Shown here: one piece after another, positions 4,361 through 55,713 of the stretch | How the letters are laid out: every line of letters begins with the position of its first letter | Numbering within the stretch: position 1 is the first letter of the stretch | Assembly (NCBI GenBank): GCA_018822885.1 | Contig: JAHJJA010000047.1 | Location: 5,384 to 69,383, forward strand | Direction of reading: 5' to 3' | Length of the DNA: 64,000 nt | Origin: Candidatus Omnitrophota bacterium | Lineage (GTDB): Bacteria; Omnitrophota; Gorgyraeia; Gygaellales; Profunditerraquicolaceae | Notes under the pieces: model-generated | Told to the model about the DNA's origin: nothing | The model's database searches: none | What the model saw: only the letters and a program-made list of their open reading frames with translations | Position numbers and translations under genes: made by a program

Positions 4361-4561
4361 TTATATTTTCGAAACGTTGGTTGCCTGGTCGCCCTTAGGC
4401 CCCTGGGTAACTTCGTATTCGACTGCGTCGCCTTCTGCTAAGGATTTATAGCCTTCTGACTTGATCGCGCTGTAGTGTACAAAGACGTCTTTTCCATCCT
4501 CGCCAGTGACAAAGCCGTAACCCTTTTGGTTCGAGAACCACTTTACTTTGCCTTTTGCCAT
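4361..4561 (-). CDS. csp: Cold-shock protein (CspA family)
   Basis: 66 aa, [18 protein letters not shown]...VFVHYSAI with RNP1/RNP2 motifs. Confidence 0.9.
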
Positions 4562-9099: not shown

Positions 9100-9722
9100 A
9101 GACGCTGATAAAAGAATTTACTAAAGGCATCACTATCGAGAACCCTACCTTTGGGTTAATATTAGGATTGTGCCCTACGCTTGCGGTTTCTACATCTCTG
9201 ATCAATGCTCTAGGCATGGGGGTGGCAGCTACATTTGTGCTGGTCGGTTCAAATACAATTATTTCTTTGGTGAGGCGTCTTATTCCGGGCCGCATCCGCC
9301 TTCCGGCTTTTATTGTCATAATCGCTACTTTTGTTACCATCTGTGAATTGGCTATGAAGGCTTATTTGCCGGCGCTGGATTCGGCTTTGGGGATATTCGT
9401 TCCCCTGATCGTGGTCAACTGTATAATCCTGGCCCGGGCAGAGGCATTTGCCTCTAAGAATAAAGTCTTACCATCTATCCTCGATGGGTTAGGTATGGGG
9501 GTTGGTTTTACAATCGGTTTAAGTGTAATCGCTTTGATCCGAGAGATCTTAGGGGCTGGCAGTATTGCCGGTATAAAGATACTGCCTGGTTTTGAGCCGG
9601 TGGCCATGATGATCCTTGCTCCTGGAGCATTATTAACTCTGGGTTTATTGATCGGGCTTACTAATTTATTAAGGAATTTACGCGGTAAGCCCAATCTTAG
9701 CAGAAAAGGAGGCTGTTGTTAA
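9096..9722 (+). CDS. rnfE: Rnf subunit E
   Basis: ATG at 9096 overlaps the rnfD stop (ATGA). MKTLIKEFTKGI...NPTFGLILGLCP matches the RnfE/NqrD family. Confidence 0.85.
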   Translation: MKTLIKEFTKGITIENPTFGLILGLCPTLAVSTSLINALGMGVAATFVLVGSNTIISLVRRLIPGRIRLPAFIVIIATFVTICELAMKAYLPALDSALGIFVPLIVVNCIILARAEAFASKNKVLPSILDGLGMGVGFTIGLSVIALIREILGAGSIAGIKILPGFEPVAMMILAPGALLTLGLLIGLTNLLRNLRGKPNLSRKGGCC

Positions 9723-16400: not shown

Positions 16401-16735
16401 CGCGGGGTGGAGCAGCCTGGTAGCTCGCAAGGCTCAATGTCTCGCCTATACATGTATGGGCGTACGATGGGCTATTCAGCCGGTAACGGCTGAAGGATAG
16501 TCGGTCAAATTCGGTGAAGCCCGAAAGGGTAATACCGAGCCAAGCCTGCGCAGTTTTGCTTTGCAAAACGAAGCAGCACAGGAAGGTGTAGAGACTAAAC
16601 GGCCGAGACCCTTCTTAAGGAAGGGCCAAGATATAGTCCAGACTACGAATTTGCCAGAGTAGCGGCAAAGCGGCGAAAGCCGAAGTAGTATGCATAACCT
16701 TGAGGTCATGCGTTCAAATCGCATCCCCGCAACCA
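16401..16735 (+). tRNA. Initiator tRNA-fMet (CAT) interrupted by a group I intron in the anticodon loop
   Basis: Exon 1 (16401-16434) is CGCGGGGTGGAGCAGCCTGGTAGCTCGCAAGGCT, with C1 mispaired against A72, A11:U24 and the D arm of bacterial initiator tRNA. Exon 2 (16693-16735) supplies CATAA, CCTTG, AGGTC, the T arm ATGCG-TTCAAAT-CGCAT, CCCCGCA, discriminator A and CCA. Mature loop would be CUCAUAA. Confidence 0.8.
16435..16692 (+). ncRNA. Group I intron (IC3-like), 258 nt, no ORF
   Basis: It follows exon U33 and ends in G. It contains P7-P8-P7'-like AGACTAAACGGCC...CCCTTCTTAAGGAAGGG...GGCCAAGATATAGTCC. It also contains GTCAAATTCGGTGAAGCC, CCGAGCCAAGC and GAAGGTGTAGAGACTA, which I recognise from the Azoarcus tRNA-Ile and cyanobacterial tRNA introns. 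Many GNRA-type hairpins are present. Confidence 0.7.
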
Positions 16736-46615: not shown

Positions 46616-47656
46616 ATGTTGCGTTATTTAACTGCAGGTGAATCGCACGGAAAGGCGTTGGTCGCTATCTTAGAAGGGATGCCGGCCGGATTAAAATTGG
46701 ATGTGCGTAAGATAAATTACGAGTTAAAGCGCAGGCAGTCTGGTTTTGGCCGCGGCGCGCGCATGCAAATTGAGAAGGATACTGTACAGATAGTTTCCGG
46801 AATGAGAAAAGGTGTGAGTCTGGGGAGTCCGATTGCGCTTTTGATTGAAAATAAAGATTGCAGTATTGAAAGTAAGCCGAGTGTGTTGAGTCCTCGCCCG
46901 GGCCACGCAGATTTATCAGGCATATTAAAATACGGATTTAAGGATGCGCGGGATGTTTTAGAGCGCGCTTCGGCAAGAGAGACAGCTTCGCGCGTCGCAG
47001 TGGGCGCGGTTTGTAAATTATTTTTGGATGAGTTTGATATTGATATATCAAGTAAGGTCTTAATGATTGGCGGGGAATGTTCCCCTCAATCCATGATGAA
47101 GAAGATCATGGGGGCAAAAGAAAATAAGGATACCGTGGGAGGTATTTTTGAGGTATTAGCTGAAGGTGTACCTGCCGGGCTCGGCAGCTATGTCCAGGCT
47201 GACAGGCGGTTGGATGCACGTTTGGCGAAAAGCATAATTTCGATTCCGGGTATTAAGGCAATTGGTTTTGGACTTGGGTTTGGATATGCCTACAGATTTG
47301 GTTCGCAAAGCCACGATGCGATTTATTATGCAAAAGACAAAGGGTATTTTCGTAAGACTAATAACGCAGGCGGAATAGAGGGGGGAGTTTCTAACGGAGA
47401 GGATATAATAATCCATGCCTCTATGAAGCCGATCTGCACATTAATGAAGCCGCTAGATTCAGTAAGCATCAATTCAAAGAAGAAATCCAAGGCAAGCACT
47501 GAGCGCTCTGATATCTGTGTGGTTGAGGCCGCAGGTGTTGTGGGAGAGAATGCCTGCGCTTTTGTTTTGGCGGACGCGATTTTGGAGAAATTCGGCTCAG
47601 ATAATCTCATTGATATTAAGAAGTCATTTCAGCAATACGTAAAAAGAATTAAGTAA
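46616..47656 (+). CDS. aroC: Chorismate synthase
   Basis: MLRYLTAGESHGKALVAILEGMPAGL follows a GGAGG RBS. The track start at 46499 is rejected. Confidence 0.85.
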   Translation: MLRYLTAGESHGKALVAILEGMPAGLKLDVRKINYELKRRQSGFGRGARMQIEKDTVQIVSGMRKGVSLGSPIALLIENKDCSIESKPSVLSPRPGHADLSGILKYGFKDARDVLERASARETASRVAVGAVCKLFLDEFDIDISSKVLMIGGECSPQSMMKKIMGAKENKDTVGGIFEVLAEGVPAGLGSYVQADRRLDARLAKSIISIPGIKAIGFGLGFGYAYRFGSQSHDAIYYAKDKGYFRKTNNAGGIEGGVSNGEDIIIHASMKPICTLMKPLDSVSINSKKKSKASTERSDICVVEAAGVVGENACAFVLADAILEKFGSDNLIDIKKSFQQYVKRIK

Positions 47657-47673: not shown

Positions 47674-47961
47674 ATGTCAATGCTTGATTTCTATAATATC
47701 ACTTTTGAAAAAGCGGATAATTCAAAGCAGATGGTGATTAAAGGAGAAGTAAAAAATAACTCCGGAAGAAATTATAATGCCGTTGCGATCAGGGTGGTCC
47801 TGTTTAACAAAAATATTCCTGTTGTAAGTACTGTCGTTGTGGTAAATGGAGTACCTAATGGTTCGACCAAAAGTTTTGAGAAGTTCGTCGAGGAAATCGA
47901 ATATGAAGAGGTAGCTAAGTCAATAAACAGGCAGGAAGCTTATATTGAGAGCGCCTATTAA
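47674..47961 (+). CDS. Hypothetical small protein
   Basis: 95 aa, no recognisable domain. Confidence 0.4.
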   Translation: MSMLDFYNITFEKADNSKQMVIKGEVKNNSGRNYNAVAIRVVLFNKNIPVVSTVVVVNGVPNGSTKSFEKFVEEIEYEEVAKSINRQEAYIESAY

Positions 47962-47987
47962 TCGCCTTTTTAGAAAATATTTGTGTT

Positions 47988-48032
47988 AGAAAATCACCTC
48001 CTTTACGTCAATTAATATTAGAGGAGGTGATT
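47988..48032 (+). promoter_or_regulatory. 13-bp hairpin pairing an anti-SD (16S 3'-end mimic) with the spoVG Shine-Dalgarno
   Basis: AAAATCACCTCCT (47988-48000), then a 19-nt loop, then AGGAGGTGATTTT (48020-48032), ending 2 nt before the ATG at 48035. Confidence 0.6.
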
Positions 48033-48034
48033 TT

Positions 48035-48292
48035 ATGGATAACGGTTTAGAAGTAAAGGTAGTGCGGCTGCATCGCTTTGAAGGTGATTCGAAACTGAAG
48101 GCCTTTGTGGATATCGCGATAGGCGATTTCGTGATCAAGGGTTTTCGGATTGTCGAGGGCAAGAATGGCCTGTTTTTAGGCCTGCCGCGGGAAAAGGCAA
48201 AGGATGGAAAGTATTACGGCGCCTTTTTCCCAGTGACTGACGAAGCGCGCAAAAGTTTAAGCGATGTGGTTTTAGCGGCGTATCAGGAGTAA
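48035..48292 (+). CDS. spoVG: Septation protein SpoVG (canonical)
   Basis: MDNGLEVKVVRLHRFEGDSKLKAFVDIAIGDFVIKGFRIVEGKNGLFLGLPREKAKDGKYYGAFFPV. Confidence 0.85.
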   Translation: MDNGLEVKVVRLHRFEGDSKLKAFVDIAIGDFVIKGFRIVEGKNGLFLGLPREKAKDGKYYGAFFPVTDEARKSLSDVVLAAYQE

Positions 48293-48300
48293 AACACGGA

Positions 48301-48373
48301 GGGACGTTTTCGAATCCAAAGCTAAGAGTGTCCCCGGTGGGGACACTCTCCCGATTGGGTTTGAAAGCGTCCC
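48301..48373 (+). other. Nested stem-loop between spoVG and aroK
   Basis: Outer GGGACGTTTTCGAA / TTTGAAAGCGTCCC arms enclose a perfect AGAGTGTCCCC-GGT-GGGGACACTCT hairpin. Only a weak U-tract follows. Confidence 0.45.
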
Positions 48374-48398
48374 TGCTAAACTGCTAAAAGAGAGCAAC

Positions 48399-48896
48399 AT
48401 GGCTAATATTTATTTAGTGGGATTTATGGGTACGGGTAAAAGCGCGGTAGGCCAGGAGCTGGCTAAAAAGAAGAAGTGGAAGTTTGTGGATTTAGACCAG
48501 TTGATCGAGTTTAAAGAAAAAATGCTTATTGCGGATATCTTTGTCAATAAAGGAGAGCCGTATTTTCGTAGGTCAGAAAAGAAAACCCTTAAAGAAGTAG
48601 CGCGTGAGAAAAAATTCGTCGTTGCCTGCGGCGGCGGTATTGTTATGGATGAAGAGAATATCAAGCTGATGAAAGAAAGCGGTTCAATAGTCTGCCTTTG
48701 CGCTTCTCCTGAATCGATACTCAAAAGGACATCCGGGTATTCCCATCGTCCGCTGTTGAATGTCAAGGACCCTAAAAAGCAGATTGAATTTTTACTCAAA
48801 ATGCGCGCACCTTTTTATGCCAAGGCTGACAAGACAATCGATACCTCAAAACTTTGCGTAAAAGAGGTGGTTTCCAGGATCTTAAAATTAGTTTAA
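48399..48896 (+). CDS. aroK: Shikimate kinase
   Basis: MANIYLVGFMGTGKSAVG P-loop. Confidence 0.85.
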   Translation: MANIYLVGFMGTGKSAVGQELAKKKKWKFVDLDQLIEFKEKMLIADIFVNKGEPYFRRSEKKTLKEVAREKKFVVACGGGIVMDEENIKLMKESGSIVCLCASPESILKRTSGYSHRPLLNVKDPKKQIEFLLKMRAPFYAKADKTIDTSKLCVKEVVSRILKLV

Positions 48897-55221: not shown

Positions 55222-55422
55222 ATGGCAAGAGGCAAAGTAAAGTGGTTCTCTAATCAGAAAGGTTATGGTTTTATCACACCTGAATCCGGTAGCGATGTAT
55301 TTGTTCATCACAGCGCTATACAGGGTGAAGGTTATAAAACCTTGACTGATGGGCAGGAAGTAGAGTTTGATATTGAGAAAGGCCCAAAGGGAGATCAGGC
55401 AGTTAACGTGGTTAAGCTTTAA
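55222..55422 (+). CDS. csp: Cold-shock protein (CspA family)
   Basis: [33 protein letters not shown]. Confidence 0.9.
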
Positions 55423-55506: not shown

Positions 55507-55713
55507 ATGCATACAGGTAAAATCAAGAAGTTAGTTCGTGAAAGAGGATTTGGTTTCATTAGCGATACAGACGGAAGAGAAGTGTTTTTTCACCAGTCGA
55601 GCTTGATTGATGTGAAATTTGATTCATTGAATGAAGAAGCAAATGTGGAATTTGACATTGAGAAATCAGATAAAGGCCCGCGTGCAGTCAATGTGAAGGT
55701 TATGGCTGCCTAA
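55507..55713 (+). CDS. Cold-shock domain protein (divergent)
   Basis: 68 aa. RNP1-like RGFGFI and RNP2-like VFFHQ. Confidence 0.75.
   Translation: MHTGKIKKLVRERGFGFISDTDGREVFFHQSSLIDVKFDSLNEEANVEFDIEKSDKGPRAVNVKVMAA

Follow-up and report, generated by a model that had tools for sequence, protein, structure and literature searches.

A hairpin at the start of spoVG

The 64,000-nucleotide (nt) stretch of contig JAHJJA010000047.1 analysed here (the window), from a Candidatus Omnitrophota bacterium, carries a spoVG gene whose Shine-Dalgarno (SD) sequence forms one arm of an inverted repeat placed directly upstream of the start codon. An earlier note on this DNA had singled out the repeat and proposed that it keeps spoVG translationally silent unless the helix is opened. 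The gene, called canonical there, is indeed a true spoVG by its match to PF04026; against NF009749 its product scores 62 bits, under that model's 108-bit cutoff. The genes and helix arms concerned are the following:

46616–47656, + strand: aroC, chorismate synthase (PF01264, E 4e-106)
47674–47961, + strand: orf95, FxLYD-domain protein (NF038353, 29.1 bits)
47990–48005, + strand: helix 5' arm, anti-SD AAAATCACCTCCTTTA; fills the 15-nt spacer (47991–48005) of the putative promoter described below
48019–48034, + strand: helix 3' arm, TAGAGGAGGTGATTTT; equals the whole predicted 5' untranslated region (UTR), with the SD core GGAGG at 48023–48027
48035–48292, + strand: spoVG coding sequence, 85 amino acids (aa) (PF04026, E 1.4e-20)

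Within the stretch ...tgtGTTAGAAAATCACCTCCTTTACGTCAATTAATATTAGAGGAGGTGATTTTATG..., the segment AAAATCACCTCCT (47990–48002) is fully complementary to AGGAGGTGATTTT (48022–48034), as had been reported: the 13-bp pairing is perfect. The repeat finder and RNAfold extend it to 16 bp (47990–48005 with 48019–48034, including one U·G pair), and once this extended pairing is counted the loop measures 13 nt and not 19 nt. The 3' arm ends at 48034 and directly adjoins the ATG at 48035, where a gap of 2 nt had been described. By a rough estimate (64000 x 80 x 4^-13), about 0.08 perfect 13-bp inverted repeats with arms no more than 80 nt apart are expected in 64 kb of random sequence.

The isolated hairpin has a predicted folding free energy (dG) of −19.8 kcal/mol. 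Folding predictions leave the SD unpaired within the helix with a probability of 0.0002 at 37 °C, which rises to 0.015 at 80 °C. The 5' arm had also been likened to the 3' terminus of 16S rRNA, and it does match what we take to be the canonical tail, ATCACCTCCTTT; the window holds no 16S gene, and such a resemblance is unavoidable in any sequence complementary to an extended SD. The window's + strand has CACCTCCT a single time in sense orientation. No Rfam family was found at its gathering score, the best E over the hairpin being not below 1.9, and an Rfam search of this region of the window together with the long-leader loci described below gave no match. The terminator scan of the window did not flag the spoVG hairpin, and no U tract comes after the helix.

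Conservation of the helix across Omnitrophota loci

For comparison we assembled 80 spoVG loci from different genomes and two near-identical contigs. Among 114 SpoVG homologues, all those with a named source bear the label Candidatus Omnitrophota. An equivalent helix lies upstream of spoVG in 79 of the 82 related loci, so that the conservation check suggested in the earlier note comes out in favour of the helix. The layout shared by these 79 of 82 loci is GT(T/G)AGA, a pyrimidine-rich anti-SD, CGTCTATT, a few bases, A/G-AAGG(A/G)GGTGAT, about 4 nt and ATG; across loci it is thus a variable NNNN-ATG that comes after the 3' arm.

Because the pairing register shifts within a fixed 15-nt spacer, covariation between MAFFT columns is uninformative outside the SD core, and we relied instead on a permutation of duplex energies and on a register-free pair table. 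Duplexes between cognate arms average −17.8 kcal/mol (range −10.6 to −26.5), against −14.9 kcal/mol for non-cognate ones; in 2000 permutations the cognate mean was never attained. In the register-free table the SD core is paired in 73–76 of 76 loci. Its middle position is U–A in 40 loci, C–G in 27 and U·G in 6, and the outer positions show 4–6 pair types. Individual loci illustrate the same behaviour: the SD arm GGAGGAACGAT of L060 and L062 pairs with TCGTTCCTC or ATCGTTCCTC over an insert of more than 100 nt, and in L006 GGAGGAAT pairs with ATTCCTCC. G·U accounts for 14% of the pairs in the optimal duplexes, and in 67 of 79 loci the sense strand folds more stably than the antisense strand. 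Since the helix covaries and its G·U pairs favour the sense strand, we conclude that it is selected as RNA and not as a DNA palindrome. The occlusion of the SD proposed earlier is upheld to this extent: the 3' arm carries the spoVG SD, in a helix under selection as RNA.

Long leaders (52–181 nt) are present in 16 loci, with all insertions placed downstream of CGTCTATT. In seven of them (L028, L032, L038, L045, L070, L024 and L029), a palindromic insert of the form TAAGT-GA-GGCC...GGCC-GA-ACTTA was observed just after the −10-like box introduced below. It is often followed by CCCGCC...GGCGGG, in leaders of 100–180 nt that keep the long-range anti-SD/SD helix. Rfam gives no match for the insert, which is perhaps a small element resembling a miniature inverted-repeat transposable element (MITE), or an added regulatory domain.

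A putative promoter embedded in the hairpin

Conservation outside the two arms follows a bipartite motif, GT(T/G)AGA-N15-CGTCTATT, which has the form of a promoter recognised by a sigma factor of the extracytoplasmic function (ECF) type. Its parts in the window are:

47974–47984, + strand: A/T-rich tract resembling an UP element, weaker than the consensus AAAA(A/G)AAT
47985–47990, + strand: GTTAGA, −35-like box (from column counts over 79 loci)
48006–48013, + strand: CGTCAATT (consensus CGTCTATT), ECF-type −10-like box, making up most of the hairpin loop
48018–48021, + strand: predicted (unmapped) transcription start region, 12–15 nt past the C of CGTC

All 79 loci share the hexamer bases G, T, A, G and A; only its third position varies, with T in 68 loci and G in 11. 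The two boxes stand exactly 15 nt apart in 78 of the 79, despite the shifting register of the pairing. The A-rich tract upstream of the hexamer is kept both where it encodes the C-terminus of AroC and where it is non-coding. Downstream, positions 14–16 past the C of CGTC form a purine run with one pyrimidine in 237 cells (79 loci). A position weight matrix run over the 64-kb window hit the motif at 47985 and nowhere else.

Several other assignments of these conserved blocks were considered and rejected. Read as a sigma-70 promoter, TTAGAA-N17-CTATTA is a poor match to consensus, and a simple scan gave no + strand site at the hairpin. A palindromic operator, TAGA...TCTA, which is set aside less firmly, would have to accommodate flanks that are asymmetric and invariant (GT before TAGA, CG before TCTA), which a promoter fits better. 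A pseudoknot between GUUAGA and UCUA shows, on inspection, no covariation in the loci with GTGAGA or CGTCA variants. As for a leader peptide, a 10-codon upstream open reading frame (ORF) of the form GTG/ATG-TTA-GAA...GTC-TAT-TAA, many loci lack its start or have an in-frame stop, and its 'stop' in the loop is not conserved across loci. Nor does GTTAGA appear to be kept as a stop codon: 26 of 79 loci have no ORF that ends there, and TAG and TGA fall in different frames in the two variants of the hexamer.

The same motif at other genes

The motif also precedes genes other than spoVG. In the flanks of the spoVG loci, dprA is preceded by it in L046, L051 and L054, with the same 15-nt spacing; the spacers there have no SD complementarity (−3 to −8 kcal/mol). 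We also scanned metagenome contigs with the pattern GTTAGAWW-N7-R-N5-CGTCTATT, in which R excludes the pyrimidine spacers of the spoVG type. At least 120 stretches (L083–L202) matched, with 121 motif instances among the matches listed. In 91 of the 121 listed instances a co-oriented ORF of at least 60 aa starts no more than 200 nt further on, most of them 17–35 nt after CGTC. The SD in these instances starts 13–14 nt past the C of CGTC, the same as at spoVG. The products recognised downstream of the motif are:

zf-HC2 anti-sigma factor: at least 23 instances
ComM/YifB: at least 13 instances
IS200-like Y1 transposase: at least 9 instances
Helix-turn-helix (HTH) protein: at least 7 instances
DNA methylases: at least 4 instances
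RecA: at least 4 instances
ComEA-like HHH_3 protein: at least 3 instances
23S-IVP four-helix proteins: at least 3 instances
RadC: at least 2 instances

The zf-HC2 anti-sigma gene stands directly 3' of an ECF sigma gene (TIGR02937, 76 bits; Sigma70_r2 and r4). In at least 23 loci the motif is found at the sigma/anti-sigma junction, overlapping the 3' end of the sigma gene (for example L117:9219–10571). L117 also has a canonical TTGACA-N15-TATAAT upstream of the ECF sigma gene (9185–9225), hence housekeeping promoters look normal here. The TATAAT of L117 ends 1 nt before the annotated sigma ATG, which may mean a leaderless sigma mRNA or a true start codon further downstream.

At the other motif promoters no pairing between spacer and SD was detected, with −5.2 kcal/mol for cognate and −4.8 kcal/mol for non-cognate combinations (p ~0.09). 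So far, in a scan that left out pyrimidine-type spacers, the helix looks like an addition almost confined to spoVG. As the motif occurs without the helix before other genes, and as a zf-HC2 gene follows the ECF sigma gene, the motif behaves as an ECF-type promoter. It combines a rigid bipartite −35/−10 arrangement, a −10 of the CGTC type, several unrelated downstream genes and linkage to a sigma/anti-sigma pair. From this genomic pattern we conclude that GTTAGA-N15-CGTCTATT is a putative ECF-type promoter, and the conserved loop and 5' flank of the spoVG hairpin are predicted promoter boxes, not RNA features. The AT-rich palindromic loop, which the earlier note had treated as a feature of the RNA, corresponds to the −10 box of a motif that is also found before genes without any helix. 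It further appears that the sigma factor acting at spoVG also drives a competence-like set comprising dprA, comM, radC, recA and a comEA-like gene.

Promoter choice as a probable determinant of SpoVG synthesis

We regard it as rather probable that the promoter-embedded hairpin silences only those spoVG transcripts that read through from upstream, and that mRNA made from spoVG's own promoter is translated. In this model GTTAGA would act as the −35 and CGTCAATT as the −10 element; the spacer between them would double as the anti-SD arm, and the SD arm would make up the entire short 5' UTR. With the cognate ECF sigma, RNA polymerase would initiate in the region of 48018–48021 and produce an mRNA without the 5' arm, with its strong SD free, from which SpoVG would be made. 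Any start past the −10 box excludes the 5' arm from the gene's own transcript; in a predicted RNA beginning at 48018 the SD is 89% unpaired. Transcripts entering from aroC or orf95 would hold both arms, fold at about −20 kcal/mol and remain silent for spoVG. For read-through RNA that includes the upstream region, the folding prediction leaves the SD less than 0.1% unpaired at 37 °C. By this means the hairpin would shield SpoVG synthesis from housekeeping read-through and make it depend on the sigma factor. The claim that the spoVG mRNA carries its own anti-SD finds no support under the promoter reading: the predicted own start lies past the 5' arm, and only read-through RNA would have both arms.

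The gene arrangement bears on the supply of such read-through RNA. The gene upstream is co-oriented with spoVG in 75 of 76 loci, and it ends no more than 10 nt from the hexamer in 57 of 79; the distance exceeds 10 nt in the other 22, including the window, where orf95 sits between aroC and spoVG and ends 23 nt before the hexamer. A gene so close to the motif leaves no space for a terminator, and transcription can therefore be expected to run on into the spoVG leader. aroC, the conserved co-oriented neighbour, is the likely source of this transcription.

A number of points weigh against this interpretation. The start site of spoVG and the read-through transcripts are both inferred, as are the sigma factor involved and the translational effect; the cognate sigma is putative, assigned by genomic association, and the metagenome contigs of the scan carry no taxonomic assignment. 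The −35 box GTTAGA does not have the 'AAC' typical of many ECF promoters. dprA, too, is located behind co-oriented genes, yet it has the promoter with no hairpin, so this gene set does not generally require insulation. At one comM locus (L125) the spacer and SD, UCUCCCUGGC and GCCAAGGAGGA, pair at −17.3 kcal/mol, and the anti-SD spacer may thus not be unique to spoVG.

A broader proposal is held more tentatively. It is possible that an ECF sigma/zinc-finger anti-sigma module found throughout the phylum Omnitrophota, acting on a promoter with an ultra-short leader, drives the natural-competence-like set together with the global regulator SpoVG. Under this proposal spoVG alone would have evolved the promoter-embedded anti-SD, and whether its mRNA is translatable would depend on where transcription starts. 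SpoVG would be made strictly when the sigma is active, despite constant read-through from the aro genes.

Alternative explanations

The helix could instead belong to a riboregulator on an aroC–spoVG operon mRNA, a default OFF state opened by a protein (such as SpoVG), a small RNA or a metabolite. Such a conserved and covarying helix must matter in some transcript, SpoVG proteins bind nucleic acids, and 16 loci have extra structured inserts inside the loop. However, the promoter boxes, which are seen elsewhere without the helix, explain all conservation outside the arms, and the inserts are variable and palindromic. There is no Rfam match and no conserved alternative pairing of the anti-terminator kind, and the candidate pseudoknot GUUAGA/UCUA does not covary. 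We consider this explanation unlikely, and nothing in the analysis argues for autoregulation by SpoVG, which the earlier note had thought plausible.

It is improbable, too, that the structure marks the end of the upstream gene's transcript, as a terminator independent of a U tract, a site of processing by RNase III or otherwise, or an element that stabilises the 3' end of the aroC mRNA, with occlusion of the SD as an incidental effect. The helix does stand directly after the upstream gene, and strong hairpins without a U tract, which may end transcripts in this phylum, come after spoVG in about 90% of loci. Yet the 3' arm is always the SD, even at 100–180 nt from the 5' arm, where a terminator could use any nearby sequence; this argues that SD occlusion is the selected property. 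The combination typical of an intrinsic terminator, a GC-rich stem and then a U tract, is not found here, the helix having no U tract after it, and helices of 10–16 bp are short for RNase III.

Still less likely is translational coupling, in which a ribosome terminating at an upstream ORF (aroC or an ATG-TGA mini-ORF) would melt the 5' arm. The aroC stop codon lies within the −35-like hexamer in 34 of 79 loci, and a start-stop mini-ORF, ATGTGAGA, is present in 8 of 10 inspected GTGAGA loci; the ATGTGA was seen just 5' of the anti-SD arm in L007, L018, L020, L024, L050, L068, L074 and L077. A translated upstream ORF that stops at the 5' arm is nevertheless not a property of all loci: 26 of 79 have no in-frame start for that stop, and 22 of 79, the window with its 23 nt among them, have an upstream ORF whose end falls over 10 nt short of the hexamer. 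Judged from the size of its footprint, a terminating ribosome would reach the outer few pairs and not the CCUCC:GGAGG core. Coupling also leaves the invariant GT before the stop and the −10 box unexplained.

An RNA thermometer that frees the SD on a temperature upshift, or acts in the cold, had been put forward in the earlier note; it is suggested by an SD held in a hairpin beside the start codon and by the csp genes of the window, and is very improbable: known thermometers rely on weak, mismatched helices, whereas this one has 16 near-perfect pairs, −19.8 kcal/mol here and −17.8 kcal/mol on average across loci, with the SD predicted to be less than 2% unpaired up to 80 °C; two of the csp genes are about 7 kb distant and the third about 43 kb.

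Comparison with known systems

The insulation of spoVG by promoter choice has a precedent in the fold-back inhibition that protects the transposase gene of IS10/Tn10: transcripts initiated at external promoters have their translation signals sequestered (Davis, Simons and Kleckner 1985, Cell 43:379; cited in PMC13181058). As far as that account goes, IS10/Tn10 (and IS50) share with spoVG an inverted repeat whose 3' arm covers the ribosome-binding site, and their own promoter fires between the arms, at a start that for spoVG is predicted. An inverted repeat with its 3' arm over the ribosome-binding site is indeed what the spoVG locus contains. As there described, IS10 differs in being a mobile element, while spoVG is a chromosomal regulator gene with a structure conserved across a phylum. 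Unlike in the described IS10 arrangement, the 5' arm at spoVG coincides exactly with the spacer of the putative promoter, whose −10 box supplies the loop, and that promoter would be of the ECF type.

Familiar ECF promoters are those of SigW, SigM and SigX in B. subtilis (TGAAAC-N16-CGTA or CGTC) and of RpoE in E. coli. The motif described here resembles them in its rigid spacer, its CGTC-type −10, the A-rich sequence upstream and the linkage of an ECF sigma with a zinc-finger anti-sigma. It differs in the −35, GTTAGA without AAC, in its location between the sigma and anti-sigma genes and not (only) before the sigma gene, and in predicted targets that resemble competence and DNA-processing genes and not envelope stress genes.

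In Firmicutes, spoVG depends on SigH in B. subtilis, and yabJ-spoVG on SigB in S. aureus. The streptococcal ComX/SigX regulon contains dprA, radC, recA and comEA. If the predictions made here hold, the two situations are alike in a dedicated alternative sigma for spoVG and in a single alternative-sigma promoter for dprA, radC, recA and comEA; the sigma family and the consensus differ. We know of no SD-sequestering helix at a Firmicute spoVG. SpoVG has reportedly been linked to ComK in B. subtilis in a recent preprint.

ROSE and fourU thermometers and the SD-sequestering platforms of riboswitches also pair the SD with an upstream anti-SD. In contrast to these, the spoVG helix is far too stable, has no aptamer and no Rfam match, and the bases outside its arms are predicted promoter boxes.

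Implications

Sequestration of the SD and protection from external promoters are already known as principles. Our literature search found no description of this helix, this motif or this regulon. What appears to be new is the architecture in which the spacer is the anti-SD, the −10 box the loop and the 5' UTR the SD arm; its conservation throughout a phylum at a chromosomal regulator gene; and a predicted Omnitrophota ECF regulon that joins SpoVG with dprA, comM, radC, recA and a comEA-like gene.

If the model is correct, a single stretch of 50 bp would serve as promoter, read-through insulator and ribosome-binding site, a compact device that makes translation depend on the promoter from which a transcript originates. 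It would also provide the first concrete regulon prediction for a sigma factor of Omnitrophota, an uncultured phylum whose members are often ultra-small and host-dependent, with an ECF sigma, a consensus and a target set. The predicted targets are mostly genes of DNA uptake and DNA processing plus SpoVG, which would tie SpoVG to competence-type regulation beyond the Firmicutes. For annotation and the search for RNA motifs the case is a warning that a helix which covaries around a conserved "loop" can prove to be a promoter with its spacer put to use as an anti-SD.

Neighbouring genes and further observations in the window

In the window the genes follow the order aroC, orf95, spoVG, aroK (48399–48896), a TPR gene and dprA. 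A 96-codon ORF, possibly a counterpart of orf95, was seen at the same position in several relatives (L005, L007, L013, L018, L026 and L065). Between spoVG and aroK lies one further structured element:

48300–48374, + strand: long stable hairpin in the spoVG–aroK spacer, from the repeat finder; terminator-like or a 3' stabiliser, without a U tract

This spacer has a dG of −57 kcal/mol (z −8.7) in the window. Among 74 loci (spacers of L003–L082), about 90% have an equally strong hairpin of other sequence after spoVG, with a median z of −5.6. The hairpin 3' of spoVG is likely a terminator or a 3' stabiliser, and with it spoVG looks like a self-contained unit between aroC and aroK.

The earlier note had taken three csp genes in the window as a hint at cold-related regulation. 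The three are present, at 4364–4552 (−), 55231–55419 (+) and 55513–55704 (+), with products 42–63% identical to E. coli CspA, but nothing connects them to spoVG.

Elsewhere in the window, at 16404–16730 (+), we observed an initiator-type tRNA(CAU) gene that ARAGORN did not call. Its anticodon loop is split by a group I intron (Rfam RF00028, 16438–16657, 58 bits), and its exon flanks read ...GGCTCA|intron|TAACCTTGAGG...CCCCGCAACCA.

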